A program made the translations under genes and the position numbers. Of a stretch of DNA of 64,000 nucleotides, positions 17,616 to 50,187 are shown in pieces. The DNA comes from an uncultured Candidatus Saccharibacteria bacterium (GTDB lineage: Bacteria; Patescibacteriota; Minisyncoccia; Phycocordibacterales; PALSA-1337). The first letter of the stretch is position 1; each line of letters begins with the position of its first letter. The notes beneath the pieces were generated by a model that saw only the letters and a program-made list of their open reading frames with translations, was not told the DNA's origin and ran no database searches. The stretch spans positions 155-64,154 of the forward strand of contig CAZLCD010000003.1 of assembly GCA_964558375.1 (NCBI GenBank), read 5' to 3'.

Positions 17616-18740
17616 ATGCGCAAAATACTCATATTTTCACTGATGTACTATCCAAAATCTGTCGGTGGTGCAGAGGTGGCGATAAAGGAAATTACCGATA
17701 GGATTTCTGAAAAAGAGATCGTTTTTGACATGATTACCCTTAATAGTGGCAATGAGGTTTCTTTCGAAAAGATTGGCAATGTGAATATCTATAGAATATT
17801 AAATGGAAAAGGTTTCATTCAAAAAATGCTCTACCCATTTGTGGCTTTCAAAAAGTCTCTAAGCTTACAGCGCAAAAATAAATATGATGCTATATGGTCA
17901 ATGATGGCAAGTTATGCAGGGTTTGCTGGGATGCTTTTTAAAAAGACAAATAAAAATATTCCTTTTCTTTTGACCTTGCAAGAGGGAGAAAACTTCCGAA
18001 GAAGGGAAGGGGTTTTTAAATTTTTATATAGAAAAATATTTGCTGCTGCCGACAAAATACAAGTCATTTCGAAGTTTCTAGAAGATTGGGCAAGGCATAT
18101 GGGCGCTAGTTGTCCTATAACTATAGTTCCTAATGGTGTTGATTATGAACTTTTTTCAAATAGAAAGTCTGAAGAAGAATTGAATATTTTAAAAAATAAA
18201 TTAAATAAAAAAGCTGATGATATTTTCCTCGTCACTACCTCAAGGCTTGTAGAGAAAAATGCGACAGCTGACGTAATAGATTCTCTAAAGTTTTTACCAG
18301 AAAATGTAAAGTTTCTTATCTTGGGTCAAGGTCATCAAGAAAAAATGTTGAAAGAAAAAGTTACTAGACTTGGCCTTAAAGACCGTGTGATTTTCCTTGG
18401 ATATGTTTCTCATAAAGACTTGCCGCAGTATCTACATATCTCTGATATTTTTGTGCGACCAGCCCTTTCTGAAGGGTTTGGAAATTCATATATCGAGGCT
18501 ATGGCTTCTGGTATCCCTGTAATCGCCACCGAAGTTGGTGGTATTGTGGACTTTCTTAAAGATGGCGAGACTGGACTTTTTTGTGAAGTGAAGAATCCAA
18601 GAAGTATTGCTCAGAAGGTAGAGAAGTTGATTAAAGACCGAGAGTCTCGGGACTATATTATAAAAAATGCAAGGGAGATGGTTCTAGAAAAATATAGATG
18701 GGAAGAGGTGGTGAAGGGGATGGGGGAGGTATTTAAATAG
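17616..18740 (+). CDS. glycosyltransferase family 4 (GT4, RfaB/WcaL-like)
   Basis: C-terminal retaining-GT motif RPALSEGFGNSYIEAMASGIPVIATEVGGIVDFLKDGETGLF (E-x7-E region). Confidence 0.8.
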   Translation: MRKILIFSLMYYPKSVGGAEVAIKEITDRISEKEIVFDMITLNSGNEVSFEKIGNVNIYRILNGKGFIQKMLYPFVAFKKSLSLQRKNKYDAIWSMMASYAGFAGMLFKKTNKNIPFLLTLQEGENFRRREGVFKFLYRKIFAAADKIQVISKFLEDWARHMGASCPITIVPNGVDYELFSNRKSEEELNILKNKLNKKADDIFLVTTSRLVEKNATADVIDSLKFLPENVKFLILGQGHQEKMLKEKVTRLGLKDRVIFLGYVSHKDLPQYLHISDIFVRPALSEGFGNSYIEAMASGIPVIATEVGGIVDFLKDGETGLFCEVKNPRSIAQKVEKLIKDRESRDYIIKNAREMVLEKYRWEEVVKGMGEVFK

Positions 18741-18751
18741 AATAAAAAATT

Positions 18752-18770
18752 CCAGCCCGGGAGAGGCTGG
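18752..18770. terminator. bidirectional intrinsic terminator hairpin (CCAGCC-cgggaga-GGCTGG) between convergent genes
   Basis: 6-bp GC stem flanked by an A-run upstream (aataaaaaatt) and a T-containing tract downstream. Confidence 0.45.
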
Positions 18771-18796
18771 AAGGTGTTAGTTTGGGATGGGCGAGG

Positions 18797-19495
18797 CTAA
18801 TAAGTGAAATTATCAGCAATAGGAATGCCGGAAACTGTAATCCCTTTACAAGTTCCACTCATGGTCGTAGCTACTTCTTCATCATTGATGATTCTGATAG
18901 CTGGTGAAGTGCAAATTTTGTCAAACAACTCCCTGCTCATGACCATGGTGAAGTTGTGGAAGATTCGACGAGCTCCACCTAGTGGTGAGGTTCCTGCTCC
19001 ATCTTTAGGTGGCAACTGCCTCACTGTCCTATCGTAAACAATTCCAATTTTCATAGCTTCTTCCAAGCTCAAAATTGGCAGTATTCCCTTGAGTTCAGTT
19101 CCTGTTAGCTCATCGATCATTTCACTACGAGGGTCAGTGTTAAAATAACCACAATCACGGGTTCCGAAGAATTCAATAGCCCTTTCTGCAATCTCCGGGT
19201 TTTCAACTTTAAACCTCGCATCATGTCCATCCTCTTTGTTTTGGTGAATCTCCTTTGCCATAAAGGTGAGTTTTACGTAATCAATTCCTCTGGTGGTGAG
19301 TTGCGCAGCACCTCCGATAGGTACAAGGAGTCTGTCTCCTTTTTCCCAGGCTCCTGAATTGAAAATGCCTAAGCGATACCTCTCTTCAGTCCCAATTATA
19401 GAAACAAACGGAGCTAATAATCCACAAGATACTCTATATGCCATACTAATAAGCTTTCTCTTTCGATCGTTAAAGGTGTGAAGAACGATAACCAC
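18797..19495 (-). CDS. conserved hypothetical protein (232 aa)
   Basis: Clean ORF with globular composition and motifs DCGYFNTDPRSE and GGARRIF. Not matched to a known family by eye. Confidence 0.35.
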   Translation of the reverse strand: MVIVLHTFNDRKRKLISMAYRVSCGLLAPFVSIIGTEERYRLGIFNSGAWEKGDRLLVPIGGAAQLTTRGIDYVKLTFMAKEIHQNKEDGHDARFKVENPEIAERAIEFFGTRDCGYFNTDPRSEMIDELTGTELKGILPILSLEEAMKIGIVYDRTVRQLPPKDGAGTSPLGGARRIFHNFTMVMSRELFDKICTSPAIRIINDEEVATTMSGTCKGITVSGIPIADNFTY

Positions 19496-19586
19496 GCTTG
19501 GTCACCACTCTATTTTTTATACTAAATGCTTTTTAAGCATCTGTCAAGGTTACGACAATTAAGTCTAGGGTTATAATCATCCTCAT

Positions 19587-20363
19587 ATGAACAAGAACCG
19601 CCACTCATTCACCCTTGCAACCATAGTCTCTGCCGGAGAATTACTTTTAAAAGAAAGAGATAAAAATTTCACCACCTCCTCAAAAGAAGGTGACTATCGC
19701 AATCTAGTTACCTCGGTAGATATTATTGTTGATGACTTTATAAAAAAGTCTATAAAATCTTCTTTTCCAGATGACCAAATATATTCCGAAGAATCGACGG
19801 AGAACGTGGCAACTTTAAATTCTTTCTGGTCTATTGACCCTATCGATGGAACTTCAAACTTTGCTAGAGGCATTCCTCATTTTGCTGTATGTCTTGCTTA
19901 TATAGAAAATGGCGCGGCGGTGTCTGGAGCTGTCTATAATCCTGTCACTAAAGAGCTTTATAGTTTTGAAAAAGGCAAAGGGGCCAAGCTCAATGGAAAT
20001 AAAATTGAAGTATCTAAAGTTAATCTTTTAAAAGAAGCCTATGTTTTATTGCATATCGGTCGCAAAGAATCTCTTAGGGATTGGGGTTTGAATCTACAAA
20101 GAAAGTTTTTGGGTGAAGCAAAGAAAACTATAAACCTCGGTTCATCTGCGCTTGATCTATGCTTTGTGGCTTCAGGAAAAGTCGATGCTACTATATACGG
20201 AACTCTCACCACTCTAGACTGCGCATCAGCTATTGGTATTGTTCGTGAGGCTTTGGGTGAGGTTTATGATTCTTCTGGACAGATGATCAAGCTTGATAAA
20301 AATCCACAGAAGATTTTTGCTACTTCAAATAAGGACTTATTTGATCAAATAGTTAAGCTTTAG
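19587..20363 (+). CDS. suhB: inositol monophosphatase family protein (SuhB/CysQ-like)
   Basis: WSIDPIDGTSNFARGIPHFAVCLA (DPIDGT motif) and downstream GSSALDLCFVASGKVDA (WDxAAG-like). Confidence 0.8.
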   Translation: MNKNRHSFTLATIVSAGELLLKERDKNFTTSSKEGDYRNLVTSVDIIVDDFIKKSIKSSFPDDQIYSEESTENVATLNSFWSIDPIDGTSNFARGIPHFAVCLAYIENGAAVSGAVYNPVTKELYSFEKGKGAKLNGNKIEVSKVNLLKEAYVLLHIGRKESLRDWGLNLQRKFLGEAKKTINLGSSALDLCFVASGKVDATIYGTLTTLDCASAIGIVREALGEVYDSSGQMIKLDKNPQKIFATSNKDLFDQIVKL

Positions 20364-21390
20364 CAAATTCTCTTTGTCGACTTTTTTCTTCTTCCGAGCG
20401 TAAAGTATTTCTTTCTTTTATATAAGAAGAAATAAAATTTCTGTCCAACTGTTCCTCATTTAAGATCGATTCAAGAATTTTATGCCATAGATCTATCCTT
20501 GACTCGGTAAGTGTACGTAGATCACCAGAAGTCTTCGGAAGAGATTGTGCATAAAACGAAAGTAGAAAACCGATTTTATATATACGCATGATTTTTAGAC
20601 TAAGGTATTCTTCTTTACTACGATTTTCTAAAATATATTGGCTAAGAGCTTTTTCGATATCTGGATTATGGATTATCATATAATTTAAGAAGCGTGCCCA
20701 GCCCTCGTATTTGTTACCAAACTGCACCGCTGAACAATCAAGCATATAAAGCGATTGATTTTTTATTCTAAAGTTATGTGGGACAAAGTCGCTATGGGTT
20801 AGATAGTTGGTGTATTTATCAATTAAGGCCTTATTTGATTTGATTAACTCCAATGATCGGGTATGAATTTCTTTATTCATAGAGAAGTCTCTAAAAGACT
20901 CTATGTATTTTTTTGAATTCCAAATTGGAAATGTCTTCTCTATAGATTTTATATGTTCAAATGTTGTAGCATGAAAGTTTTCTTGAGCTTCAAAAGCTTT
21001 GAGAGCAATGAAAAATTGTTCTTCTAACGCATGATCCACAAAAACTTTTTCTTGTGTAATGAAGAGGGTGATAAAGATCAGATAATTTTCCCGAACACCA
21101 TAATATAATTCTTGAGGAAAAGAAATACTGTCATCTGCAAAAGAGAGTGATTTTAATAAATCTCGAGATTTCTTCTCATTTTCAATCTCTATTTTGCCGT
21201 GAGGATGATTGGCAATTTTAATTATAACTTTAGCTTTATCTGAGAGTCTATTTCCAACAAGAACTAGTTTGTTCTTGGTCATGAGATAACGCTCTCCACC
21301 TATGTGAAGTTGATCTTTGTCCAAAGAAAATCCAAGCCCCGCAATGATTCCTCTGATATTTTCAAGGTCTATAGTGATTGATTTTGTCAT
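20353..21390 (-). CDS. phosphotransferase-family kinase-like protein (APH/choline-kinase fold)
   Basis: THSDFVPHNFRIKNQSLYMLDCSAVQFG matches the Brenner/APH catalytic-loop pattern HxDxxxxNxx…(L/I)DxE. Confidence 0.4.
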   Translation of the reverse strand: MTKSITIDLENIRGIIAGLGFSLDKDQLHIGGERYLMTKNKLVLVGNRLSDKAKVIIKIANHPHGKIEIENEKKSRDLLKSLSFADDSISFPQELYYGVRENYLIFITLFITQEKVFVDHALEEQFFIALKAFEAQENFHATTFEHIKSIEKTFPIWNSKKYIESFRDFSMNKEIHTRSLELIKSNKALIDKYTNYLTHSDFVPHNFRIKNQSLYMLDCSAVQFGNKYEGWARFLNYMIIHNPDIEKALSQYILENRSKEEYLSLKIMRIYKIGFLLSFYAQSLPKTSGDLRTLTESRIDLWHKILESILNEEQLDRNFISSYIKERNTLRSEEEKSRQREFAKA

Positions 21391-21451
21391 TTTTTTATTC
21401 TACAATAATAACACTTTTTAACCAACTAATAGCTATATTAACCAATACAAT

Positions 21452-22405
21452 ATGAATACTGTTATTTTAACCGGAGGTGCTGGATTCATCGGATCGAATC
21501 TTATTCCAAAGCTTTTGAACAAAGGCTATAAGGTTATCTGTGTAGATAATTTTGACGATACTTATGATCCAGGTATAAAAGAAAAAAATATATCGATTTT
21601 TAAGGATAATCCTAATTTTGTTTTGGAGAGAGTGGATATTCGCGACATCGATAAGTTGAAAAAAGTTTTTGAAAATAATAAACCTAAGTTCGTGGTCCAT
21701 CTAGCCGCAAAGGCCGACACTCGCGATGCTGTAGATAATCCTTTCATCTATACTTCTATAAACATAGACGGCACTCTAAACGTTCTTGAATGTGCCAGAA
21801 TTTTTGCTATAGAAAATATCGCTCTAGCCTCATCTTCTTCTGTGTATGGCAATACAGAAGCTGTACCATGGAGCGAAAATGAAACCGCTGACAAGCCTCT
21901 TTCTCCATACGGTGCTACAAAAAGAGCTGTTGAACTTATGGCCTATACCTATCATCACAATTTCAAAATGAACATTACATGCCTGCGTTATTTTAATGCT
22001 TATGGAGAAAATAACAGACCAAACATGGTGCCTTATAAATGGGCCGATCTACTGCTTCATGATAAAGAAATAGAAATTTCTGGAGATGGAAGTCGTAAGC
22101 GAGACTATACTTATGTCGGGGATATTGCAGATGCTACATTGCTTGCTATGGAAAAACCATTAGGTTTTGAGATTCTAAATATCGGTAACAAAAACCCAAT
22201 TTCTCTAAATGAACTTCTGGCTGTTTTTGAAAAAATTATTGGTGTCAAGGCTAAGGTTGTTTCTAGAAAAAGTAATTCGGCAAGTGTAGAAATAACTTAT
22301 GCTGATATTGCCAAAGCTAAAAATTTGCTCAATTGGGAACCAAAGGTTTCTCTCGAAGAGGGGATAGGGAAGTTAGTGAAGTGGTTTCGTGACAACAGAC
22401 TCTAA
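21452..22405 (+). CDS. NAD-dependent epimerase/dehydratase (UDP-glucuronate 4-epimerase/GalE-like SDR)
   Basis: ILTGGAGFIGSNL Rossmann motif, catalytic YGATK (YxxxK), and SSSSVYG. Confidence 0.8.
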   Translation: MNTVILTGGAGFIGSNLIPKLLNKGYKVICVDNFDDTYDPGIKEKNISIFKDNPNFVLERVDIRDIDKLKKVFENNKPKFVVHLAAKADTRDAVDNPFIYTSINIDGTLNVLECARIFAIENIALASSSSVYGNTEAVPWSENETADKPLSPYGATKRAVELMAYTYHHNFKMNITCLRYFNAYGENNRPNMVPYKWADLLLHDKEIEISGDGSRKRDYTYVGDIADATLLAMEKPLGFEILNIGNKNPISLNELLAVFEKIIGVKAKVVSRKSNSASVEITYADIAKAKNLLNWEPKVSLEEGIGKLVKWFRDNRL

Positions 22406-23581
22406 AATTTTCTCTAGGTTTTCTATATGGGCCTCCCAAGAGAATTTGGTTTTTAAAAGGTCCACTCCGTTATGTACAAGTTTTTCTTGCAAAGTTTTAT
22501 CTGTAAGTAGACGCAAGATGGCCTCAGCAAGGCCTTTTTCATCACCTGGTTCTACTAGTAATCCAGTCTTCTCATGATATATAGCTTCATTGGTACCACT
22601 TATATTTGTAGCGACTACGGGTATCATAGCTGCAAAACTTGTAAGAACTACATGTGGCAATCCTTCATATGTGGAATTTAAAACATAAACAGATGATTTC
22701 TTTCTCAATTGCCATGTCTCTGCACGTGAGACATTACCCTTAAATACTACATTATCAATAACTCCAAGTTCGCGGGCGAGATTTTGTAAATTTTCTAATT
22801 CTGGACCTTCTCCAGCGACTATGAGTTTGATATTAGGAATTTTTTCTTTAAGAATTGCTACGGCTTTTATAATGCCATCTATACCTTTCCATACTACCAA
22901 TCTGGCTGTTGTGACTATTTGATTCTCTACTTTCTCTACGTTGAAAGGTAAAATCTCAGAATTTTCTGAGGCATTGTAATTTACGACTACTTTTTCTCTT
23001 GGTACTTTGTATGCCTTAATAATTTCCTCTCCGAGATAGGCTGATGGGGTAGTGACAATAGAAGCACGACGTAATACAAAACCTTGTATCCACATCATTG
23101 TTTTTATTTTGATCCCGCCATCCGGGTTTTTTAAAAATTCCTCAAGTCTCTTTTCTGTTAGTCTGCGCTGCGCCGCTCTTTCCCAAGCTTCATCTCCTAC
23201 AAATTTTAAAATAAATGGCACATGAAAAATACTACAAGCTATAGCTGTAGGTAAGCCAGCTGCCATGGCGTTCTGAACATAGACAATATCAAAACCCCTT
23301 ACTACTTTTAAAAGTTCAATTGTATATTTTAATAATCTTTTTATCAGAGCCTGATTTTTTTCAACTACTATAAGTTTGGTACCGACGAATGGTTCCTGCT
23401 TATGGGTGTAGGCAGTAACAGTTATTTCATGTTTTGTGTGAAGTCGCTCACATAGTTCTTTGATATAGGTCGCAGGCCCGCCAATTTCTGGTGGATAGAT
23501 CGGTGTTGCTAGAAGAATTTTCATAATTTTCGATAATAACACAATTATATATCTTTGTGATAGTATGTACAAATAACCCAT
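22373..23581 (-). CDS. glycosyltransferase family 4
   Basis: N-terminus MKILLATPIYPPEIGGPATY. C-terminus NSTYEGLPHVVLTSFAAMIPVVATNISGTNEAIYHEKTGLLVEP. Confidence 0.75.
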   Translation of the reverse strand: MGYLYILSQRYIIVLLSKIMKILLATPIYPPEIGGPATYIKELCERLHTKHEITVTAYTHKQEPFVGTKLIVVEKNQALIKRLLKYTIELLKVVRGFDIVYVQNAMAAGLPTAIACSIFHVPFILKFVGDEAWERAAQRRLTEKRLEEFLKNPDGGIKIKTMMWIQGFVLRRASIVTTPSAYLGEEIIKAYKVPREKVVVNYNASENSEILPFNVEKVENQIVTTARLVVWKGIDGIIKAVAILKEKIPNIKLIVAGEGPELENLQNLARELGVIDNVVFKGNVSRAETWQLRKKSSVYVLNSTYEGLPHVVLTSFAAMIPVVATNISGTNEAIYHEKTGLLVEPGDEKGLAEAILRLLTDKTLQEKLVHNGVDLLKTKFSWEAHIENLEKILESVVTKPLH

Positions 23582-23586
23582 AGTCT

Positions 23587-24606
23587 ATGAAAATCCTCAT
23601 TTCTACAGGTATATACCCTCCCGATATAGGCGGATCAGCTCAATATGCTCGTAATCTATATGAGACATGGAAAGCTGAGGGTCATGAAGTGAAAGTGGCT
23701 GCATACAGATGGGAGAGAGCCTTTCCCAATTTTGCTAGGCATTTTCTTTTTTTTACAAAAATCATTCGCAAAGGTTGGAATGCCGATATGATACTCGTTC
23801 TCGATACTTGGAGTGCTGCGGTGCCTACTATGTATGCCTGTGCTTTGATGAGAAAGAAATACATTATAAGAACCGGTGGAGATTTCCTCTGGGAAACTTA
23901 TGTTGAAAGAACTGGAGATCTTGTCCTATTTAAAGATTTTTATAATACTCGCCTCAATAAACTTTCAAAAAAAGAAAGAGTTATTTTTAAGTTAGGTGGA
24001 GAATCTTTGCGTAAGGCTTCAAAGGTAATCTACAGTACAGAATGGCAAAGAAAGATTTTTGAAAAAGTCTATAAGCTTGATAAAAACAAAAGTGTAATTG
24101 TTGAGAATTATTGTGGTGAAAGGGAAGAACCTGTGGAACCAGAGGGAAGAGTTTTTCTTGCTGGAACTCGCAATCTCAAATGGAAAAATGTCGAAGCTCT
24201 CAAAGAGGCTTTCAAACTTGCGCAGAGTGAAGTAAATAAAAGGGGACTATTACCAATAGAATTCGATACCACCAAGGCTATATATGATAATTTTCAAGAT
24301 AGAATGAGAAGGGCATATGCCGTAATTCTTACATCTCTTGGAGATATTAGCCCCAATATGATTTTGGACGCTATACGTCTTGGTGTGCCTTTTATTTTAA
24401 CCAAAGAAACTGGCATAGCAGACAAAATAAAAGACTGTGCAATCTTTGTCGATCCTTTGAATGAAAGAGATATTGTAGAGAAAATACTCTGGATATCTGA
24501 TCCTAAAAACCGCGCTTCGCAGGCGGAAAAAGTAAAAAGATTTAATTGGGTGCATAGTTGGAAGGATATCGGTAAAGAGATAATTGATATACATGGACGA
24601 AAATAA
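23587..24606 (+). CDS. glycosyltransferase-like protein (GT4-type N-terminal domain)
   Basis: N-terminus MKILISTGIYPPDIGGSAQYARNLYETW is paralogous to the neighbouring GT4 N-terminus. The C-terminal half is divergent. Confidence 0.5.
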   Translation: MKILISTGIYPPDIGGSAQYARNLYETWKAEGHEVKVAAYRWERAFPNFARHFLFFTKIIRKGWNADMILVLDTWSAAVPTMYACALMRKKYIIRTGGDFLWETYVERTGDLVLFKDFYNTRLNKLSKKERVIFKLGGESLRKASKVIYSTEWQRKIFEKVYKLDKNKSVIVENYCGEREEPVEPEGRVFLAGTRNLKWKNVEALKEAFKLAQSEVNKRGLLPIEFDTTKAIYDNFQDRMRRAYAVILTSLGDISPNMILDAIRLGVPFILTKETGIADKIKDCAIFVDPLNERDIVEKILWISDPKNRASQAEKVKRFNWVHSWKDIGKEIIDIHGRK

Positions 24607-40826: not shown

Positions 40827-40850
40827 CAATAGAAAGAGTAATGTAAACAC

Positions 40851-42056: not shown

Positions 42057-42578
42057 ATGAAAAAAAAGATAATAAAAAACTTAATATTAGATGTTGACGG
42101 AGTCTTCACTGATGGTCAGTTTCACTATACCACAGAAGGCAAGACTGCAAAGATATTTGGTCCAGATGATAACGATGGTCTAGCTCTAATAAGACCATAT
42201 CTTAATATAGTTGCTGTAACAGGTGACAAGAAGGGGTTTGAGATCACAAAGAAGAGAATTGATGATATGAAAATTCCTCTTTTTCAAGTCAGTACTTTTG
42301 AAAGAATACATTGGATAAAGTCACAAGGATACAATCTTTCAGAAACTGTATACATGGGAGATGGAATATTTGATGCTATGGTTTTTGATAAGGTTGGATA
42401 CAGTATTGCTCCAGCAAATGCATTCCCAGCAATAAAGAAATACGCTGATCATGTTACGAAACTTAGTGGAGGACATGGGGCTGTTGCTGAAGCTTGTCTG
42501 CATCTTCTAGAAAAGTTCTTTAAGAAAGTAGATATGCTTAATTTGAAAATACAGGAAGGAGAGTGGGGAAATAAATAA
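42057..42578 (+). CDS. HAD-superfamily IIIA phosphatase, KdsC-like (sugar-acid/sugar phosphate phosphatase)
   Basis: LILDVDGVFTDGQFHYTTEG (DxDG motif I), VTGDKK (motif II region), YMGDGIFDAMVFDKVG (motif III), and GGHGAVAEACLHLL as in KdsC. 173 aa. Confidence 0.7.
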   Translation: MKKKIIKNLILDVDGVFTDGQFHYTTEGKTAKIFGPDDNDGLALIRPYLNIVAVTGDKKGFEITKKRIDDMKIPLFQVSTFERIHWIKSQGYNLSETVYMGDGIFDAMVFDKVGYSIAPANAFPAIKKYADHVTKLSGGHGAVAEACLHLLEKFFKKVDMLNLKIQEGEWGNK

Positions 42579-42579
42579 T

Positions 42580-43302
42580 ATGAAATATAAAGTACTCATC
42601 ACTACATCAGGTACAGGTTCACGTTTGGGAGAACTGACAAAGAATACAAATAAGGCTATGGTTTTAATTAATGGAAGACCAACCATTAAATATATCTTTG
42701 ATTCATATACAAAAGATACTACTTTCGTAATAACTCTAGGATTTCTAGGTGATCAAGTTAAGGATTTTCTTCTAAAGAGATATCCAGAATATAACTTTGA
42801 ATTTGCTGTTGTAGATAAGTATATAGGAGATGGAAGTAGTCTTCTATACTCAATGCTATGTGCTAAAGACTATCTACAATGTGCATTTATCTTCCATGCA
42901 TGTGACACTATCGTTACAGAAAAGATTCCAGAACCAATAGAGGATTGGGTAATTGGGTATGTCATAGATCCTGCAACAACTACGATGGATGTAAAACAAT
43001 ATCGAAGTCATGATGTTAAGGATGGGTATCTAGCTAAGGTTAATGACAAGGGGGTAATGAAGTTCAATTCAATTCATATTGGTATGACTGGAATATATAG
43101 CTACCAAACTTTTTGGAAAGTCGTAGAAGAGATGTATAAAAATGATCCAACGAATCAGGCTCTAGGAGATGTTCCTGTTATAGAAAAACTTATGGATTTA
43201 GGAGTAAGGTTTAAATGGATTCCTTTTAAAAATTGGCTTGATACTGGTAACCCCCAAGCACTTAAGGAGACTGAACAATTTATTATAAAAAGTAGTTTAT
43301 AA
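42580..43302 (+). CDS. sugar-phosphate nucleotidyltransferase (LicC/RmlA/GlmU N-domain family)
   Basis: VLITTSGTGSRLGELTKNTNKAMVLINGRPTIKYI matches the G-x-G-T-R-L…T…PK…L nucleotide-binding signature. Confidence 0.65.
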   Translation: MKYKVLITTSGTGSRLGELTKNTNKAMVLINGRPTIKYIFDSYTKDTTFVITLGFLGDQVKDFLLKRYPEYNFEFAVVDKYIGDGSSLLYSMLCAKDYLQCAFIFHACDTIVTEKIPEPIEDWVIGYVIDPATTTMDVKQYRSHDVKDGYLAKVNDKGVMKFNSIHIGMTGIYSYQTFWKVVEEMYKNDPTNQALGDVPVIEKLMDLGVRFKWIPFKNWLDTGNPQALKETEQFIIKSSL

Positions 43303-43312: not shown

Positions 43313-44200
43313 ATGACATACAAATCTCTAAAGACTAGAATAAAGGATATAACTAGAAAATATGCTCCATTGATATATCCTTTTGTATATAAAGCGTCTC
43401 TAAGATTTTCTAATTCTAAAATTGAGAAAAGTAGGATAGAGAAATACTCACGATTTGTAAGACCTGGATTCTATCCATTCGAACTTGGGAAAATTAAATT
43501 CGATATGAAGCTCGATCCAGCTAATGGGGGAGTTGATATGGATATCTTTGCTGATAAATACTATGAATCAAAGATACTTGAGTTAGTAGGTTCTCTTTTG
43601 AAAAAGGAAGATACTTTCATAGATATTGGAGCTAATATTGGTCAACATTCTATGTATGCTTCATATTTCTGTAAACATGTATATAGTTTTGAACCAGTAA
43701 AGAAACTTTTCAATCAGTTTAATGAATCAATCTCGAAGAATGTAATTTTAAATATATCTACATATAACTACGCTTTAGGAAATGAGAAAAAGAGAATGCC
43801 AATATATTCAAATGGAGTCAGTATGGCAGCTTCTTCTATAAATACAGTTAAGAACAAGAAGTATATACAAGATATACAAATATTAAGATTTGATGATGTA
43901 TATGAAAAAATGAATATTGGAAAAGCTGAATTAATTAAAATAGATGTGGAAGGGTATGAGTTAGAAGTCCTTTTGGGGGCAAAGGAGTATATCAATAAAT
44001 ATAAACCAAAGATTCTTCTAGAATTCAGTCCATATTTCTATAGAAGAATAGATGCAACAATATCAGACAAGATTATTTCTTTCCTCGTCGACTCTAAATA
44101 TAAAGTATATGACTTAGGAGAATATAATGATAAGAGAATTCCCATATTTAAATTAAAGGATATAAGTAATACAGATCAGGTTAATCTTTTGTGTGAATAA
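43313..44200 (+). CDS. FkbM-family SAM-dependent methyltransferase
   Basis: FIDIGANIGQHSMYAS (motif I, FkbM type) and LIKIDVEGYELEVLLGA (the FkbM-family DxEGxE block). Confidence 0.65.
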   Translation: MTYKSLKTRIKDITRKYAPLIYPFVYKASLRFSNSKIEKSRIEKYSRFVRPGFYPFELGKIKFDMKLDPANGGVDMDIFADKYYESKILELVGSLLKKEDTFIDIGANIGQHSMYASYFCKHVYSFEPVKKLFNQFNESISKNVILNISTYNYALGNEKKRMPIYSNGVSMAASSINTVKNKKYIQDIQILRFDDVYEKMNIGKAELIKIDVEGYELEVLLGAKEYINKYKPKILLEFSPYFYRRIDATISDKIISFLVDSKYKVYDLGEYNDKRIPIFKLKDISNTDQVNLLCE

Positions 44201-44263: not shown

Positions 44264-45415
44264 ATGAAAATATTTAATGATTATATCGAAAGAAAAAAGA
44301 GTATTATCACTAACAAAGAAGGTTTGGAACATCTATATACATTCAAAAACTTCCCAATTTTTTTTGGTTGCGTAGACTCCCCACAAGATGAGGATTTGTT
44401 TGCTAATATGGAATGGGCTATTGATAAGGAGACGGGAGTAATACAACTTACTAAACTAATACCTCTGGATATTTTGTACCAGGCTCAACATGTTGATGGA
44501 TATGGACCAACTTGGCAACAGTATTATAAAGATCTCGCTGATTATATAGTTAAATATAATCCAGAATTAGTTCTAGAAATAGGTGGTGGACAAGGTCAAT
44601 TAGCTACATTTGTTACAGATAAATTAAAAAATTTAAATTGGACTATAGTTGAACCAAACTCTTGGCATGAGGGAAATGACAGAATTAAGACAGTTTCTGC
44701 TTTTTTTGATAAAAACTTTTTGTACGATAAAAAAGTAGACGCTGTTGTTTTTTCACAAGTACTTGAACATGCTTTTGATCCTAATGAATTTATCTCCGCT
44801 ATCTCTAAGTTTCTAAAACCAGGAGGAAAACTTATATTTGCTTACCCACAACTTGAGGTGTGGCTTAAAAATAAATTTACTAATGCTTTGAATTTTGAAC
44901 ATACAATGTTCCTAACCGATTATTTTGTAGATTTTATCCTAGAATCTAATTCATTTAAAATTTTAGATAAATATACTTACAAAACACACAGTCATTTTTA
45001 TGTAGCTGAACGTCTAGGTGTAGATACTCCAGCTGTTAATCTTGCTAAACTTGATAATAAATATGAATCATACAAAGAGATATTTAATGATTTTATTAAA
45101 TATCATCAAGATATGGTTGATGATATCAATAAAAAAATTGAAAATGCAAAAGACCCAGTGTATTTATTCGGTGCTCATATATTCTCAGAATACCTACTTG
45201 CTTTCGGTCTTAATGATAAAAAGATAGTTTCTATACTAGATAATAGTCCCACTAAGAATAAAAAAAGATTATATGGAACTAGATTTGTTATAGAATCACC
45301 AAAGATTCTAGAAGGTAAGGGTAAGGTTAATCTAATACTGAAAGCTGGAATATATAATGAAGAGATCAAGAAAGACATATTACAAAATATTAACAGTGAA
45401 GTGGAATTTTGGTAA
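44264..45415 (+). CDS. class I SAM-dependent methyltransferase with C-terminal extension (sugar C/O-methyltransferase-like)
   Basis: LVLEIGGGQGQLATFV (motif I), VFSQVLEHAFDP, and ISKFLKPGGKLIF (motif III), plus a C-terminal ~130-aa domain as in three-domain sugar methyltransferases. Confidence 0.6.
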   Translation: MKIFNDYIERKKSIITNKEGLEHLYTFKNFPIFFGCVDSPQDEDLFANMEWAIDKETGVIQLTKLIPLDILYQAQHVDGYGPTWQQYYKDLADYIVKYNPELVLEIGGGQGQLATFVTDKLKNLNWTIVEPNSWHEGNDRIKTVSAFFDKNFLYDKKVDAVVFSQVLEHAFDPNEFISAISKFLKPGGKLIFAYPQLEVWLKNKFTNALNFEHTMFLTDYFVDFILESNSFKILDKYTYKTHSHFYVAERLGVDTPAVNLAKLDNKYESYKEIFNDFIKYHQDMVDDINKKIENAKDPVYLFGAHIFSEYLLAFGLNDKKIVSILDNSPTKNKKRLYGTRFVIESPKILEGKGKVNLILKAGIYNEEIKKDILQNINSEVEFW

Positions 45416-45424: not shown

Positions 45425-46282
45425 ATGAACAAGCCAACTATATCGATCTGTACACTGATAAGAAGCGAAGCTCATCAAATGGAGAGTTTTCTCCTTGACC
45501 TTAAGGGCTTTGCTGATGAGGTAATTTTTGTTGACTCTGGCACTTCAACTGATGCAACAATTCCAATAATTAAAAAACATATTGATACGGGGGAGAATCA
45601 TATAAAACACCATAGCTTCATTGAGGAAGGTAAACCTCACTTCGGAAAAATAAGAAACTTTTGTTTGGAAAAGGCAACTATGGACTATGTAATTTTCCTC
45701 GATGCTGATGAGAGATTGAGTGAGGATTTCAAGAATGATATAAGAAAATATTTAAAGGAAAAGAATCCAAATGTAGTAAAGATCATAAGAATAGATGATT
45801 TGGTAACTAATCTTGTTGAGAATATAGATAGAATAATAAAGAATGATAAAAATATTTGGTATGGTACTGATGAAGGATCTAGAGCTCATGAGTATCCAAT
45901 ACATTCAGATAAATCAGAGATATTTCCGGAACCAATATGGCATAGTCAGAAAGAAGGACATTGGCTGCACTCTCCGCAGAGAATTCTTCACTGTATAGAT
46001 CTAGAAATATATCGTACTCCTAAAACAAAGACCTTCTTCGGACATTTACTACGAGGCTTGTGGCTGTTTCAATTCAAGTTTAAAAAAGTATATTTTCAAC
46101 AGAATGTACGTAAGAATGGCAGAGTTGGTTTAAAATATGCATTTATGAGAGCCCTTCAGGTGTTTATCATTCAATTGTTCGTAGGTCTTAAGCCTGGAGG
46201 GAAATATAAGTATTGGGAGAATCCAAATTATGAAAAGAATATGAAGTCAGCTTTAGATGAGCTTCATTTTAAAAACAAATAA
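45425..46282 (+). CDS. glycosyltransferase family 2-like protein
   Basis: ISICTLIRSEAHQM…EVIFVDSGTSTD…YVIFLDADERL (GT-A fold with DxD-type DAD/DADE). Confidence 0.55.
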   Translation: MNKPTISICTLIRSEAHQMESFLLDLKGFADEVIFVDSGTSTDATIPIIKKHIDTGENHIKHHSFIEEGKPHFGKIRNFCLEKATMDYVIFLDADERLSEDFKNDIRKYLKEKNPNVVKIIRIDDLVTNLVENIDRIIKNDKNIWYGTDEGSRAHEYPIHSDKSEIFPEPIWHSQKEGHWLHSPQRILHCIDLEIYRTPKTKTFFGHLLRGLWLFQFKFKKVYFQQNVRKNGRVGLKYAFMRALQVFIIQLFVGLKPGGKYKYWENPNYEKNMKSALDELHFKNK

Positions 46283-46931
46283 ATTTATGTATATATTTCA
46301 ACCAGAACGCATCATTCTTCGAGAGCAGGTAATAAAACACTCCAGCTATATCACTGGAAAAACTCTAGATGTTGGGGCTGGTGAAGGGGGAAGATACAAA
46401 GGATTGTTTCCATGTACTGAATATATAACTATGGATGTAGATAAGAATGCTGGAGTTGATATTGTGGGAAGAGCAGAGAAAATACCCCTAGCTGACGCTA
46501 GTGTTGATTCTATAGTTTGTACTCAGGTTATGGAACATCTCAATTTACCTTTCGACGCAGTTAAAGAGTTTTATCGTATATTAAAACCTGGAGGTCATAT
46601 ACTCGTAACTGCTCCTCAGATGAATGAATTACATGAAGAACCTAATGATTTCTTTCGATATACAAAATTTGGACTATTGAGTATGTTTGAAAAGGTTGGT
46701 TTCAATACAATCAAATATGAACAGAGAGGTGGTTTTTTTACCACTAGAGCCCAGATTCTAATACGTTATCTGATTGATCGTCTAAGATTATATAAGAGAC
46801 CAATTTTAGGTAAAATATTAGGTAAGTTTATTCTTGTGTATGGTAAGTTTATGATGTGGCTTGATACTCTAGACAAGAGTGAAGCTAACAGAAAAAATAC
46901 ACTAGGTTGGTGTTTTGTATTTTCTAAATAA
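46257..46931 (+). CDS. class I SAM-dependent methyltransferase
   Basis: TLDVGAGEGGRYKGLF (motif I), IVCTQVMEHL, and YRILKPGGHILVTAP (motif III). Confidence 0.65.
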   Translation: MSFILKTNKFMYIFQPERIILREQVIKHSSYITGKTLDVGAGEGGRYKGLFPCTEYITMDVDKNAGVDIVGRAEKIPLADASVDSIVCTQVMEHLNLPFDAVKEFYRILKPGGHILVTAPQMNELHEEPNDFFRYTKFGLLSMFEKVGFNTIKYEQRGGFFTTRAQILIRYLIDRLRLYKRPILGKILGKFILVYGKFMMWLDTLDKSEANRKNTLGWCFVFSK

Positions 46932-46939: not shown

Positions 46940-47653
46940 ATGATCAATAAAAAAGAACTAGCAGGGATATTGTCAGGAATAGAGGGCTTCTTAACTCTAG
47001 AGGAAGGAAAATTACTTTTTGATTTGGCTAAAAATACCAAAACAGATTCAATAGTTGAAATAGGTTCTTGGAAGGGAAAGTCTACTGTATGTTTAGGGTT
47101 AGGATCAAAAGAAGGATCTGGAATAAAAATATATGCAATAGATCCACATACAGGAAGTCTGGAGCATCAAAATGAATTTAAGGGAAATGTTTGGACATTT
47201 GATATTTTTAAAGAAAATGTTAGAAGGTCAGGTATTGAAGATATGATAGTGCCTATAGTCAAACCTTCTGGAGAAGCTGTGAAGGATTTCAATCAAGAAG
47301 TATCTCTTATATTTATTGATGGAGCTCATGAGTACGATGCCGTAAAAAAAGATTTTGAAGATTGGATTTCAAAGATTGTTGATGGAGGTGTTGTTGCCTT
47401 CCATGATACTATTGGTTGGGCTGGTCCACGTAAGGTTGTAGAAGAGTATCTTTATAAATCTAATAACTTTATAAATATAGGATTCGTAGATTCCATTACT
47501 TACGGAACTAAGGTGTCTAATAATAACCTATTAGATAGGATTAAAAATAGATATATTTTATGTCTAAGAGATTTTTCGGAATATGTTCGTCCTCTACCAA
47601 TACCTAAAGTTATTAAAAAAACAGGAAAGAAGATATTAAATATATTCACATAA
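46940..47653 (+). CDS. class I SAM-dependent methyltransferase (CmcI/O-MTase family-3-like)
   Basis: SIVEIGSWKGKSTVCL, SLIFIDGAHEYDAVKKDFEDW and GGVVAFHD, the pattern of Methyltransf_24/CmcI-like enzymes. Confidence 0.5.
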   Translation: MINKKELAGILSGIEGFLTLEEGKLLFDLAKNTKTDSIVEIGSWKGKSTVCLGLGSKEGSGIKIYAIDPHTGSLEHQNEFKGNVWTFDIFKENVRRSGIEDMIVPIVKPSGEAVKDFNQEVSLIFIDGAHEYDAVKKDFEDWISKIVDGGVVAFHDTIGWAGPRKVVEEYLYKSNNFINIGFVDSITYGTKVSNNNLLDRIKNRYILCLRDFSEYVRPLPIPKVIKKTGKKILNIFT

Positions 47654-47657
47654 ATAT

Positions 47658-48902
47658 ATGAAGATCTTATTCCTATCAGATGATTTTCCTCCCAAAAGTT
47701 TTGGAGGTGCAGGTATTATAACCTTCAATCTTGCCAAAGGCCTTCTGGATGCTGGGCATAAGATGTATGCAATAACTACAACTCAGGATAGAAAGGAAGA
47801 GGGTTGGAGTAATGTTGAGGGTATAGAGGTATATAACTTGTACGTTGATTATGATGGTAGATTCGCTGCGTATGTTAGTCTATGTAATCCTAAGGTTATA
47901 TTAAAGGTAAAAAAACTAATAAAGGATATAAATCCAGAAGTAATTCATGCGCATAATATCCATCACTATCTTTCATACTACACCCTTGCTGTAGCTCGAT
48001 CATTCACTTCAAAAGTGTTCCTTACAACCCATGATGCTATGTCATTTAACTATGGTAAATTGGTGAATTTTTATGATAGAAAAAATCTTGAAGTTCAAAA
48101 AGATTTCTCATATAAAGTTGGGTTTTTACAAAACCTACGTACAGCCAAGAAAAGATACAATCCAATTCGTAATATAGCTATACGTTGGTATTTAAATACT
48201 TTTCCAAAGAAGATATTCGCTATATCTCACGAACTAAAGAAAGCGTTGAATCAAAATGGAATTAAAAATGTAGAAACAATACACTATGGTATTGAATCTA
48301 GAGACTGGAATGTATCAGAAGAAGAGAAGAAAACATTCAGTACAAAACTTGGACTAGATACCAAGAAAATTGTGTTTTTTGGTGGAAGACTAAGTGAATT
48401 TAAAGGAGGAAAGATTATGATAGATACAATGAAAGAGTTGTCTGAGAAGGATAGAGATATTGTTCTACTTATTGCAGGTACTCTAAATGACTATTCAAAA
48501 TACTTATTAAACTATGCTGAAGAAATCGGAGTGATGAACAATATATTTTTTACTGGTTGGTTGTCGAGAGATGATATGAAAAAAGCATACGCAGTATGTG
48601 ATGTCTGTGTTACTCCATCAATATATTTTGATGCTTTTAATCTTTTTAATATAGAAGCCGGGTCGGCATCTAAACCAGTTGTTGGTACATGTTTTGGTGG
48701 TACTCCTGAAATTGTAATCGATAAAGTTACAGGACTTATTGTTAACCCTAATAATATAGAGATATTAAGTAATGCTATATATACTATAGTTGAAGATAAA
48801 GAATATACTACGAAACTAGGAAAGGCAGGGAATGAGAGGGTTAAAGAATACTTTACTATGGATAGGTATGTTATAGAGACCCTGTCTTGGTATCAGAAAT
48901 AG
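47658..48902 (+). CDS. glycosyltransferase family 4
   Basis: N-terminus MKILFLSDDFPPKSFGGAGIITFNLAKGL. C-terminus PSIYFDAFNLFNIEAGSASKPVVGTCFGGTPEIVIDKVTGLIV. Confidence 0.75.
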   Translation: MKILFLSDDFPPKSFGGAGIITFNLAKGLLDAGHKMYAITTTQDRKEEGWSNVEGIEVYNLYVDYDGRFAAYVSLCNPKVILKVKKLIKDINPEVIHAHNIHHYLSYYTLAVARSFTSKVFLTTHDAMSFNYGKLVNFYDRKNLEVQKDFSYKVGFLQNLRTAKKRYNPIRNIAIRWYLNTFPKKIFAISHELKKALNQNGIKNVETIHYGIESRDWNVSEEEKKTFSTKLGLDTKKIVFFGGRLSEFKGGKIMIDTMKELSEKDRDIVLLIAGTLNDYSKYLLNYAEEIGVMNNIFFTGWLSRDDMKKAYAVCDVCVTPSIYFDAFNLFNIEAGSASKPVVGTCFGGTPEIVIDKVTGLIVNPNNIEILSNAIYTIVEDKEYTTKLGKAGNERVKEYFTMDRYVIETLSWYQK

Positions 48903-50187
48903 TTTGCTGTTGTTTTCGATCTTTCTTAACTATATAGAACCAGATAAACACAGATATTGTAGCTGTAGCTACTAGTAATGTCATTCTTCCGTATACCACA
49001 CTGGTCACTCCTAATTTCTGGATGAAAGAGAAGATGAATATTGTTGATAGGAGACTAGGTATATTCCATAGGTATAACATCTTCTTAGGTAGATAATTTA
49101 CTTTTGAATTTATAGCAGGACTTAACATGGTCAAAGGCATAGATATTAGTATTGTAAGGGCATATATTCTAGATATTCCTACAGATGAAAGATATGCTGG
49201 GAAGAATATCTTAAATATTAGGGGAGCGAATATAATGTAAAGTATTACTATGCCTATAGAGATAATGAATATCATAAATATTCTCTTATATAGAAGTTTG
49301 CCTATATCAGCGATTGGACGTGCTGCCATTTTAGGCATTGCTAGAGTCGGTATATTTCTAAACAGACTTACCATTTGGGTTACTGGCGCTATAGCAAAAC
49401 TATATATTGCTAGTTCTATAGATCCTAAGTAATGAAAGATTAGAATTGAATCTAAAGATCCTATTAAAGTTGCAATAACATCGATAAAGCTCGAATGCTT
49501 ACCCATAGGTATTGTTGCAGGATCAATCCTATCATTAGGGGGGTATCTCTTTATAGTTCTAAAGAAAAATAAAATTCTAATCAGTGTCCATGAGGATAAA
49601 TATACAACTAATATTATGTATATGTTACTTGTTACAAATACAGTAGCTATCATTAATGAACTAGCAATCAATTGACTCAAAGTTATATATCTCGAAGATA
49701 TATCAAATATTTTCTTTCCCTGAAGATAGTCTTGGTAGAGATGGAAAGAATCCATAAATGGAATGAATAGTGAGGCTATTAGGAATACAATAGCTAGCTC
49801 AATGTTTCCATTTGAGTAGTAATAGATTGATACTCCAACACTGACAATTGATCCAACTACACCCCAAGTTATTTTTGTCTTCAATCCTTTTATCAACGAT
49901 CCTTCCAAACCTCTCGCTACGGCCTGAGATATCATGGAACCCATCCCTGTCAGAGTTGTTATTGAAAGTATCCCAAGTATCGATAGGAAGTATTTGTATA
50001 CTCCATATGTATGTGCAGGTATATGGCTAGCAAACACTATGGCAGTCACAAATACCATTGCAGAAGCTGATATATTACTTATAGTAAGCCAAAAACCACC
50101 CCTCGCAAGGTATACCATATCTGTCTTAGTGTATTTCTCACTCGATCTCAATATTAAGTACGTTCTCTGTTTAAGGTGGTGGAACAT
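48871..50187 (-). CDS. wzx: polysaccharide/oligosaccharide flippase (Wzx-like, MOP superfamily)
   Basis: 438 aa, about 12-14 predicted TM helices, basic N-terminal cytoplasmic segment, overall layout of Polysacc_synt proteins. Membership of the glycan island supports the call. Confidence 0.55.
   Translation of the reverse strand: MFHHLKQRTYLILRSSEKYTKTDMVYLARGGFWLTISNISASAMVFVTAIVFASHIPAHTYGVYKYFLSILGILSITTLTGMGSMISQAVARGLEGSLIKGLKTKITWGVVGSIVSVGVSIYYYSNGNIELAIVFLIASLFIPFMDSFHLYQDYLQGKKIFDISSRYITLSQLIASSLMIATVFVTSNIYIILVVYLSSWTLIRILFFFRTIKRYPPNDRIDPATIPMGKHSSFIDVIATLIGSLDSILIFHYLGSIELAIYSFAIAPVTQMVSLFRNIPTLAMPKMAARPIADIGKLLYKRIFMIFIISIGIVILYIIFAPLIFKIFFPAYLSSVGISRIYALTILISMPLTMLSPAINSKVNYLPKKMLYLWNIPSLLSTIFIFSFIQKLGVTSVVYGRMTLLVATATISVFIWFYIVKKDRKQQQTISDTKTGSL

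Follow-up and report, generated by a model that had tools for sequence, protein, structure and literature searches.

The 64,000 nucleotides analysed here (the window; contig CAZLCD010000003.1 of an uncultured Candidatus Saccharibacteria bacterium) contain a glycan-assembly island, 17616-50187, which judging from genome comparison is a replaceable cassette of 32.7 kb in a fixed chromosomal slot, bordered on the left by the gene of a TraG-like ATPase and on the right by the gene of a Wzy_C-domain membrane protein, here called the anchor, and exchanged wholesale between close relatives. The island probably represents the serotype-like variable part of a lipid-carrier-dependent surface-glycan pathway and would specify one oligosaccharide that the anchor transfers en bloc. 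The original prediction, made from the letters of this stretch, had seen a single large island for a complex, heavily tailored heteroglycan, and this view stands: in Pfam and NCBIfam profile scans of all open reading frames (ORFs) of at least 100 residues in the 64-kb window the glycosyltransferase (GT) calls hold, 99% of the island is coding, and 25 genes at 23587-48902 follow each other on one strand with intergenic gaps of at most 63 nt, rather than being split into unrelated housekeeping operons. The two border genes are:

15854-17593, + strand: TraG/VirD4/HerA-like P-loop ATPase, left border, outside the island (T4SS-DNA_transf, TrwB_AAD_bind and DUF87 matches)
50290-52581, + strand: anchor, Wzy_C (WaaL/PglL superfamily) membrane protein with C-terminal tetratricopeptide repeats (TPR), 763 residues (Wzy_C 56.2 bits, cutoff 31.7, residues 230-394)

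Evidence for the exchange comes from the closest relative (locus L007, from SRR284939xx samples). In this relative, nucleotide identity to the window is 92% until the TraG-like gene ends with its stop codon at 17593 and 88-89.5% from position 50348, which lies 58 nt into the anchor gene, across the genes for pilins, PilD, LigA and GatCA, and nothing in it is alignable to window positions 17594-50347. The predicted island coordinates thus proved meaningful, as their left end lies within 22 nt and their right end within 160 nt of the ends of the replaced block. The island that the relative carries instead is encoded on the opposite strand and contains Wzm/Wzt, AsnB, GT2 and methyltransferase genes, and despite the swapped island and export mode the anchor is 91% identical. 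Since the same enzyme serves Wzx- and ABC-type loci and stays that similar when the island is swapped, it seems to act like a ligase or oligosaccharyltransferase and not like a unit-specific polymerase. In three assemblies of the relative (L095, at 11693-12116, L096 and L097) the contigs end about 420 nt after the TraG-like gene, inside a minus-strand ORF with coiled-coil-like repeats (IGELK..Q.TEVI); a related 105-aa ORF is found at the same place in a third genome (L099) and has no counterpart in the window.

A more distant Paceibacteria genome, CAZBLC01 (L098), with an anchor 57% and a TraG-like protein 74% identical to those of the window, contains a syntenic island of about 29 kb between the same two border genes, the proteins of which are 49-84% identical to those of the window. 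Because this island lacks the segment corresponding to 18797-23581 and has a UDPG_MGDP_dh dehydrogenase gene at the position of Gmd, mosaic assembly by module exchange is supported, as far as gene order and identity can tell. The original prediction had arrived at mosaic assembly by way of four inverted genes at 18797-23581; in fact the strands alternate (-,+,-,+,-), with minus-strand genes at 18797-19495, 20353-21390 and 22373-23581 and plus-strand genes at 19587-20363 and 21452-22405 between them, so that it is the missing segment, the swap of Gmd for the dehydrogenase and a split in base composition that speak for a mosaic. Compared with the flanks, GC content is lower in the right-hand 25.6 kb of the island (0.327 vs 0.374, p=7e-6; GC at third codon positions 0.251 vs 0.313) and not in its left 7 kb, which are flank-like at 0.367. 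No meaningful direct or inverted repeats were found around 18797-23581, and no tRNA or mobile-element gene at either island border. In L099 the GT4 genes at 17616, 23587 and 24584 are shared with the window at 58-78% identity and the rest of the island differs, which suggests that these three form a semi-conserved inner module.

Homologues of several proteins of the window bear the names Patescibacteria, Candidatus Paceibacterota, Taylorbacteria or Parcubacteria, which assigns the window to the class Paceibacteria, and the slot extends far beyond the genomes compared above. TraG-like ATPases are 64-90% identical across Paceibacteria, and homologues of the anchor number in the thousands as full-length proteins (35-91% identity) and occur in at least 596 species genomes of the GTDB, all Paceibacteria, the closest species representative having an anchor 62% identical. 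We surveyed 80 anchor loci with 10-kb flanks using our own ORF calls and phmmer labelling with a limited seed set, drawn from genes with Pfam annotation in the window and in six hand-checked loci. Matches to glycan-gene seeds make up 43% of the ORFs upstream of the anchor and 1% of those downstream, where MurB (39 of 54 loci) and SecA (50 of 54) are found. In 45 of the 62 loci with at least 5 kb of upstream sequence, an exporter is encoded among the four genes that precede the anchor (20 Wzx, 19 Wzm/Wzt and 6 ABC flippases), and in 20 of the 62 Wzx has the place and orientation that it has in the window. Otherwise, the upstream content is wholly different between species, comprising TagF-like glycerophosphotransferases with NeuB and a CMP-sugar synthetase, sets of GT4 and methyltransferase genes, or sets of AsnB and GT2 genes; the hand-checked loci were of teichoic, nonulosonate and GT4 type. 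We found no description in the literature of the Wzy_C-TPR family or of the slot in Patescibacteria. One anchor locus, L064 (JBEBJM010000018.1), is binned as Nitrospira sp. and contains methyltransferase, GT4, Wzx and anchor genes on an 8.9-kb contig that is probably mis-binned Patescibacteria.

An AlphaFold2 (AF2) model of the anchor, built on 20 homologues (pLDDT 83), contains 13 transmembrane helices, an 80-aa loop (297-376) between helices 9 and 10, and after helix 13 a TPR solenoid of about 260 residues (TPR at about 550-760 in AF2 and Pfam). As Lys and Arg residues concentrate in the even-numbered loops, the positive-inside rule predicts that the N-terminus is cytoplasmic and that large loop and TPR domain face the exterior. 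Furthermore, in hhalign the profile of the membrane domain places R244, R325 and H375, which are invariant in 19-20 members of the anchor family, on R215, R288 and H338 of Escherichia coli K-12 WaaL; as the overall alignment is weak (probability 10%; E=0.003 in one comparison), this match is only supportive. The three WaaL residues are cited as functionally important and conserved in PglL in PMC3643930. A Foldseek search of the PDB with the model of the whole anchor retrieved TPR proteins only and was uninformative on the membrane fold.

How could the island and the anchor cooperate to build a surface glycan? Cytoplasmic enzymes would supply activated sugars, namely a GDP-6-deoxyhexose precursor through Gmd, 4-epimerised UDP-sugars, and a rare sugar from an embedded cassette described below. 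An initiating transferase encoded elsewhere in the genome, as WecA is for E. coli O-antigen loci, would prime polyprenyl phosphate. About eleven soluble GTs (10 GT4 and one GT2, possibly joined by the domain X introduced below) may then add one sugar each, giving a single oligosaccharide of about 12 residues, which could be tailored by five methyltransferases, an amidotransferase, a deacetylase (de-N-acetylation) and kinase-like enzymes (possible phosphorylation). Wzx, according to a hydropathy scan the sole polytopic membrane protein inside the island, would flip the finished unit. Because neither Wzy nor Wzz is encoded in the island, the unit would be left unpolymerised, and the Wzy_C-TPR anchor, acting on the outer side of the membrane, would pass it en bloc to an acceptor at the cell surface. 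Presumably phages or host recognition select for the wholesale exchange of the block.

The most likely acceptors would be Ser/Thr residues of surface proteins, that is type IV pilins or an S-layer protein, with the external TPR serving as acceptor-docking module. A protein acceptor is the option that we favour within the overall model, at somewhat less than an even chance, because an external TPR domain would be a protein-binding module, because the S-layer O-oligosaccharyltransferase WsfB of the monoderm Paenibacillus alvei shares the combination of Wzy_C and C-terminal TPR, a likeness in domain architecture reported in PMC2943079, and because pilus genes border the slot in four genomes. Candidate acceptors are encoded directly after the anchor in the window as well as in the closest relative:

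52683-57581, + strand: type IV pilin cluster with the prepilin peptidase PilD at 54392-55186 (N_methyl motifs, Peptidase_A24)

The pilins encoded at 52683 and 53218 have C-terminal tails rich in Ser, Thr and Ala. Comparing the two pilins of the window (52683-53848) with those of the closest relative (12421-14067 of L007), the N-terminal helix alone is conserved (70-78% nucleotide identity) and the globular parts cannot be aligned, even though identity of the DNA on either side is 88-89.5%, so that by this comparison the globular domains appear as a second hypervariable spot beside the glycan island. In CAZBLC01 (2223-9883 of L098) and L099 (899-8548) a type IV pilus operon (pilM, pilB, a response regulator, pilT, pilC and a pilin gene) lies directly upstream of the TraG-like gene and the glycan island directly downstream of it, whereas in the lineage of the window pilin genes stand to the right of the slot instead.

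Several observations weigh against en bloc transfer of a lipid-linked unit to protein. The window contains no initiating transferase of WbaP/PglC or WecA type, and a PglC-type probe of approximate sequence had no match in the window and matched within 10 kb in only one of the 80 related loci, for which reason the lipid-linked start is assumed and not seen. The original prediction was thus right in that initiating transferase, Wzy and Wzz are absent from the island by profiles and hydropathy, but it overlooked the adjacent Wzy_C gene, on which the working of the island would hinge. MraY (10378-11505), correctly named as the sole member of its superfamily in the window (TIGR00445 176 bits against 41 for WecA), is ruled out as initiating enzyme by its mur/fem context and MraY-level score. 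In 17 of the 62 loci no exporter was recognised in the last four genes, as judged by our own ORF calls and the limited phmmer seeds. Besides the weakness of the WaaL alignment, PglL_A (PF15864) is not among the Pfam matches of the anchor at E<=0.01, and against PDB sequences the full-length anchor profile finds TPR proteins only and the membrane domain nothing. Finally, pilin genes lie beside the anchor in none of the 54 other species, MurB/SecA being found there instead; the adjacency is therefore lineage-specific, and a pilin-dedicated TfpO-like system is ruled out as general explanation.

The same assembly line could also end differently, if the anchor were a WaaL/TacL-type ligase that attaches the glycan to a membrane glycolipid or a wall polymer, yielding a lipoglycan, a lipoteichoic-acid-like product or a secondary wall polymer. 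We consider this unlikely, albeit it is the strongest of the alternatives. In the pneumococcus, a monoderm, the lipoteichoic acid ligase TacL belongs to the Wzy_C family, the catalytic residues of the anchor align with those of WaaL itself and PglL_A is not detected, many sister loci encode a TagF-like Glyphos_transf protein together with Wzm/Wzt, as is typical of teichoic-acid-like polymers, and MurB is the usual downstream neighbour (39/54). Moreover, simple sequence comparison cannot separate WaaL from PglL (PMC3643930). Yet TPR domains usually bind proteins, WsfB, the only characterised monoderm enzyme reported to combine Wzy_C with a C-terminal TPR, acts on protein as an O-oligosaccharyltransferase, the slot has pilus genes at its border in the four genomes examined, and no genes for synthesis of an anchor glycolipid are seen in the window.

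Far less probable is that the anchor is a Wzy polymerase and that the island makes a repeat-unit capsule or exopolysaccharide by a Wzx/Wzy route. The Wzy_C domain is found in some O-antigen polymerases too, Wzx is present and divergently adjacent to the anchor, and there is no other Wzy candidate; but Wzy enzymes are repeat-unit specific and the anchor is 35-91% identical across species with unrelated loci, lies equally beside Wzm/Wzt and ABC-flippase loci, which need no Wzy, and is kept at 91% identity in the closest relative despite the swap of island and export. In addition, no ORF in the window belongs to the Wzz/polysaccharide co-polymerase family, and eleven GTs are far above the need of the usual repeat unit of 3-8 sugars.

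Apart from the embedded cassette, the gene content of the island on which the model of one transferred oligosaccharide draws is as follows (SDR, short-chain dehydrogenase/reductase; SAM, S-adenosylmethionine; alternative starts are from Logan gene calls on assemblies of SRR12762303/4 with identical proteins):

17616-18740, + strand: GT4 glycosyltransferase of the semi-conserved left module (Glycos_transf_1 149.8 bits; orthologues 63-66% identical at the same place after the TraG-like gene in L098 and L099)
18797-19495, - strand: 232-aa protein with no Pfam or NCBIfam match (GC 0.42, the island maximum; within the segment missing in L098)
19587-20363, + strand: inositol-monophosphatase (IMPase)-family sugar phosphatase (Inositol_P 185.6 bits; no NCBIfam equivalog reached)
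20353-21390, - strand: kinase-like protein, 345 aa (no profile match; motif-level evidence alone, HSDFVPHN, that is H-x-D-x4-N, followed by MLDCS)
21452-22405, + strand: SDR, NDP-sugar epimerase, dehydratase or reductase (Epimerase 191.7 bits; best NCBIfam match GalE, 185 against a cutoff of 262; Fcl 77)
22373-23581, - strand: GT4 glycosyltransferase (Glycos_transf_1 142.8 bits; Logan start 23524, giving 383 aa)
23587-24606, + strand: divergent GT4-like protein, the most conserved island gene (Glyco_transf_4 31 bits, cutoff 28.5; Glycos_transf_1 22.9, below cutoff; 76-78% identity to L098/L099)
24584-25717, + strand: GT4 glycosyltransferase (Glycos_transf_1 101.3 bits; 58-59% identity to L098/L099)
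25707-26681, + strand: SDR resembling TviC/WbpP-type UDP-(N-acetyl)hexuronate or hexose 4-epimerases (TviC 216 bits, cutoff 760; 62% identity to L098)
26720-27742, + strand: Gmd, GDP-mannose 4,6-dehydratase (GDP_Man_Dehyd 401.8 bits, full length; TIGR01472 414.5, borderline against a cutoff of 415)
27756-28784, + strand: GT4 glycosyltransferase (Glycos_transf_1 66.7 bits; 62% identity to L098)
28785-29993, + strand: GT4 glycosyltransferase (Glyco_trans_1_4 49.9 bits; 65% identity to L098)
30029-31843, + strand: AsnB-type glutamine-dependent amidotransferase (Asn_synthase 261, GATase_7 151, TIGR01536 463.8 bits)
31845-32900, + strand: GT4 glycosyltransferase (Glycos_transf_1 67 bits)
32812-33828, + strand: class I SAM methyltransferase (Methyltransf_11 64.8 bits; start probably 32890, Logan 312 aa)
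33825-34706, + strand: APH/choline-kinase-like kinase KinA (APH 22.4 bits, cutoff 23.2; HGDLTIDN motif)
34708-35895, + strand: GT4 glycosyltransferase (Glycos_transf_1 75.6 bits)
35892-36818, + strand: CE4 polysaccharide deacetylase, predicted cytoplasmic (Polysacc_deac_1 72.3 bits; no hydrophobic segment)
36815-37579, + strand: 254-aa protein with no Pfam or NCBIfam match (one weak homologue, in variable locus L022)
37579-38697, + strand: GT4 glycosyltransferase (Glycos_transf_1 112.3 bits)
43313-44200, + strand: FkbM-family methyltransferase (Methyltransf_21 73.2 bits)
44264-45415, + strand: 383-aa methyltransferase accompanying the X cassette (Methyltransf_23 44.1 bits; weak C-methyltransferase C-terminal domain; 53-55% identity to L092, L094 and L014)
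45425-46282, + strand: GT2 glycosyltransferase (Glycos_transf_2 47.7 bits)
46257-46931, + strand: methyltransferase (Methyltransf_11 53 bits)
46940-47653, + strand: methyltransferase (Methyltransf_24 87.3 bits)
47658-48902, + strand: GT4 glycosyltransferase (Glycos_transf_1 111.9 bits; 69% identity to L014)
48871-50187, - strand: Wzx-type flippase (MOP/Polysacc_synt), divergent from the anchor gene (Polysacc_synt 43.5 bits, cutoff 28.2; about 12 hydrophobic segments)

Pfam thus assigns ten GT4 genes (17616, 22373 on the minus strand, 23587, 24584, 27756, 28785, 31845, 34708, 37579 and 47658), not the about eleven of the original prediction, and the single predicted GT2 at 45425. Nine of the GT4 genes are clear on Glycos_transf_1; the tenth, 23587-24606, is above the cutoff for the N-terminal Glyco_transf_4 alone. 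The profiles also bear out Gmd, the AsnB-type amidotransferase, the CE4 deacetylase, Wzx and all five methyltransferases (32812, 43313, 44264, 46257 and 46940), as well as the missing Fcl/Rmd partner of Gmd: no such equivalog is reached, and the two SDR proteins score 70-77 bits on Fcl against a cutoff of 500. One of them could still serve as Fcl/Rmd-type reductase. Two SDR genes are present as predicted, with GalE and TviC as their closest families, albeit neither reaches an equivalog cutoff. For the suggested uronamide residues the AsnB-type and TviC-like genes are there, but no UDP-sugar 6-dehydrogenase is encoded anywhere in the 64-kb window; in L098 the orthologue of the TviC-like gene is followed by a UDP-sugar dehydrogenase gene. 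AsnB homologues recur across many variable loci, that of the closest relative included. Each of the three proposed kinases contains the H-x-D-x4-N motif, but those at 33825 and 40851 stay below the APH cutoff and that at 20353, probably the third one meant by the original prediction, has no profile match.

Embedded in the island is a five-gene sugar-activation cassette, 38702-43302, of which the original prediction had recognised only the kinase, missing the fusion of a domain X with 6-phospho-3-hexuloisomerase (PHI), the ribulose-phosphate epimerase, the phosphatase of the KdsC-like HAD type and the nucleotidyltransferase, just as it missed the IMPase-family gene and the Wzy_C-TPR gene:

38702-40132, + strand: fusion of X domain (aa 1-295) and PHI (aa 296-476) (TIGR03127 183.2 bits, cutoff 160)
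40134-40826, + strand: ribulose-phosphate 3-epimerase family protein, Rpe (Ribul_P_3_epim 212 bits; TIGR01163 221.1, cutoff 212.6)
40851-42056, + strand: kinase KinB with a degenerate N-terminal nucleotidyltransferase remnant (HGDLILEN motif; APH 18.2 bits, cutoff 23.2)
42057-42578, + strand: KdsC-subfamily HAD sugar-phosphate phosphatase (TIGR01670 81.5 bits, cutoff 106.95; 58-66% identity to L092-L094, 80% to L014)
42580-43302, + strand: sugar-1-phosphate nucleotidyltransferase (NTP_transferase 24.7 bits, cutoff 21.2; SGTGSRL; 77% identity to L014)

In the fusion protein the TIGR03127 match spans residues 299-476, and the PHI domain resembles YckF (PDB 1m3s) in sequence (125 bits) and in its predicted fold (Foldseek TM-score 0.85). 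At its N-terminus KinB carries approximately 95 residues (40851-41140) that represent a decayed version of the start of the nucleotidyltransferase encoded two genes further on: over 71 aa (residues 2-72) the identity to the product of 42580-42800 is 44%, and the GxGxR motif is lost. Homologues of KinB in L092-L094 are complete fusions of NTP-transferase and kinase (489-533 aa); fusions of kinase and nucleotidyltransferase are likewise known in LicCA, HldE and Fkp. A PDB sequence search with the 40851 kinase gave no match, and the nucleotidyltransferase encoded at 42580 has weak matches to GlmU-like, RmlA and MurU families. HAD phosphatase, APH-fold or other sugar kinase and nucleotidyltransferase together convert a terminally phosphorylated sugar to an NDP-sugar with no need for a mutase in MupP-AmgK-MurU, LicCA and HldE/GmhB, and by analogy the trio of the cassette may follow the same logic. 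The kinase at 40851, at least, which had been called choline-kinase-like, fits better as a member of such a sugar-activation cassette of phosphatase, kinase and nucleotidyltransferase.

Together with the methyltransferase gene at 44264, the module 38702-43302 is met again in the glycan loci of distant Patescibacteria (L092, L093 and L094). Its constants are X, a sugar-phosphate isomerase (SIS/PHI or cupin), a kinase, a KdsC-like HAD phosphatase, an NTP-transferase and a methyltransferase of about 380 aa. Rpe comes after X-PHI in L092 too, and some loci with the module contain GatZ/FBP-aldolase-like genes instead of Rpe. As IMPase-family genes accompany the cassette of X, kinase, HAD phosphatase and NTP-transferase in L092 and L093, the IMPase-family gene at 19587 probably belongs to the same recurring module. 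We found no description of hexuloisomerase-containing glycan cassettes in the literature.

Domain X (about 290 aa, 38702-39586) has no Pfam model, 72 word-indexed homologues and 445 cluster representatives among 1.84 billion proteins, one member carrying a Nanoarchaeota label. Characterised by the motifs DDSRGW, WNEDH and ELFACIDDD, it stands alone or is fused to SIS/PHI, cupin, GT2, methyltransferase, FkbM or B12/radical-SAM domains. In the AF2 model of X-PHI (pLDDT 88) X shows a beta-alpha-beta pattern with the acidic WNEDH after strand 4, and on these grounds it is suspected to be a divergent glycosyltransferase-like domain. Foldseek of the model returned a match list filled by SIS domains, with nothing on the fold of X. 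Comparison of X by hhalign with the GT2 (E=0.19) and the NTP-transferase (E=0.62) of the island was not significant, so that the former, which sets WNEDH opposite the DxD region of the GT2, is no basis for claiming a GT-A fold.

Hardly credible is the alternative that PHI and Rpe (as a reverse ribulose monophosphate (RuMP)/pentose-phosphate supply), IMPase/FBPase, AsnB and the kinases have housekeeping roles and are scattered among the GTs: PHI and Rpe do pass NCBIfam equivalog cutoffs, AsnB passes that for asparagine synthase and CPR (candidate phyla radiation) genomes use RuMP enzymes for pentose synthesis, but these genes lie within the 25-gene co-directional run with overlapping or nearly touching reading frames, the entire block including them is missing in the closest relative, X-PHI, Rpe, kinase, HAD, NTP-transferase, the 380-aa methyltransferase and IMPase are found together in the glycan loci of distant genomes, and AsnB recurs in many variable loci.

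Taking the cassette and the anchor together, a more far-reaching proposal can be made, which we put forward tentatively and as a joint claim that is rather unlikely to hold in all its parts. The segment 38702-45415 would encode a hitherto undescribed mutase-independent NDP-sugar pathway leading from a ketose phosphate via the HAD phosphatase, the APH-fold anomeric kinase and the nucleotidyltransferase to methylation, with X, as a new family of glycosyltransferase-like domains, being its dedicated transferase, and the Wzy_C-TPR protein would act throughout Paceibacteria as the general O-oligosaccharyltransferase, decorating type IV pilins and other surface proteins with the strain-specific oligosaccharide encoded in the slot.

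To the left of the slot the window contains a peptidoglycan cluster (5073-13540) with MurD-like and MurC-like ligases, a PLP (pyridoxal phosphate)-dependent enzyme (6406-7365), a FemX/ATE_C-like transferase (9743-10432), MraY, an ATP-grasp ligase (12317-13540) and an NlpC/P60-like protein, which suggests a non-standard stem peptide or cross-bridge. Between these genes and the TraG-like ATPase lies a gene for a putative DUF4015 glycoside hydrolase (14308-15471, 321 bits), which is kept in the closest relative. Two tRNA-Met and one tRNA-Asp are encoded at the right end of the window (62073-63877), outside the island.

CPR bacteria, or Patescibacteria, are thought to live attached to other microbes via their surface and pili, and a recent study called the glycosylation of Saccharibacteria pili unexplored (PMC11623550). 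A fixed slot for a surface-glycan locus in at least 596 species, counted by the anchor gene, filled here by an island that would amount to about 4% of the genome (sized on a related complete genome of 752,630 bp), offers a candidate, open to test, for what sets host or phage specificity at strain level and, in the anchor, a candidate protein-glycosylation enzyme. If the anchor were indeed a general O-oligosaccharyltransferase, the island would help to determine how these episymbionts recognise hosts and evade phages. In well-studied phyla variable glycan islands are as a rule accompanied by conserved ligases, and the arrangement is conceptually not new for bacteria in general; the cassette, whose domain family without annotation is a lead to a new activated sugar, and the acceptor are the parts that could prove new.

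Among known systems the slg loci of Gram-positive bacteria (WsfB of P. alvei; WsaB/WsaA of Geobacillus stearothermophilus) share with the slot the monoderm host, the clustering of nucleotide-sugar genes, several GTs and methyltransferases, export by Wzx or Wzm/Wzt followed by a Wzy_C-domain transferase, and, in P. alvei, an asparagine-synthase homologue comparable to the AsnB of the island (PMC2943079). They differ in that no S-layer gene was identified in the window and no WsaP/WsfP-type initiating transferase near the island, and in that the CPR enzyme is a syntenic anchor outside the swappable locus, whereas for slg clusters no preferred chromosomal site is reported. The enterobacterial O-antigen (rfb) locus is likewise a hypervariable low-GC locus between conserved flanks, comes in Wzx- and ABC-dependent variants and has a conserved ligase outside the variable block, the R/R/H residues of WaaL being kept in the anchor, and a conserved initiating enzyme outside it, which we infer for the present case. 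In contrast, the CPR cell has no outer membrane or lipid A-core acceptor, the island has neither Wzy nor Wzz, the anchor has an additional 13th helix and a 260-aa TPR domain predicted to be external, and the glycan is probably a single large unit and not a polymer.

PglL/TfpO (PilO) enzymes of Neisseria, Acinetobacter and Pseudomonas have a Wzy_C domain with the conserved R/R/H, transfer units linked to undecaprenyl pyrophosphate en bloc to Ser/Thr and are often encoded beside pilin genes (PMC3643930), an adjacency that the window and the closest relative share. The anchor, however, has no PglL_A match, its pilin adjacency is absent in the 54 other species, and its host is a monoderm. With MupP-AmgK-MurU, LicCA and HldE/GmhB the segment 38702-43302 has in common a HAD phosphatase, a sugar kinase and an NTP_transferase-family nucleotidyltransferase, but the cassette of the island opens with PHI fused to X, contains Rpe in addition, and its matches to the named equivalogs are far below cutoff. 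In its logic the slot would appear to be of O-antigen/slg type, with a variable biosynthetic block and with initiation and ligation encoded outside it, and it is distinct in its lack of polymerisation genes, its monoderm ultra-small host, its undescribed sugar-activation module and the external TPR on a ligase-like enzyme.

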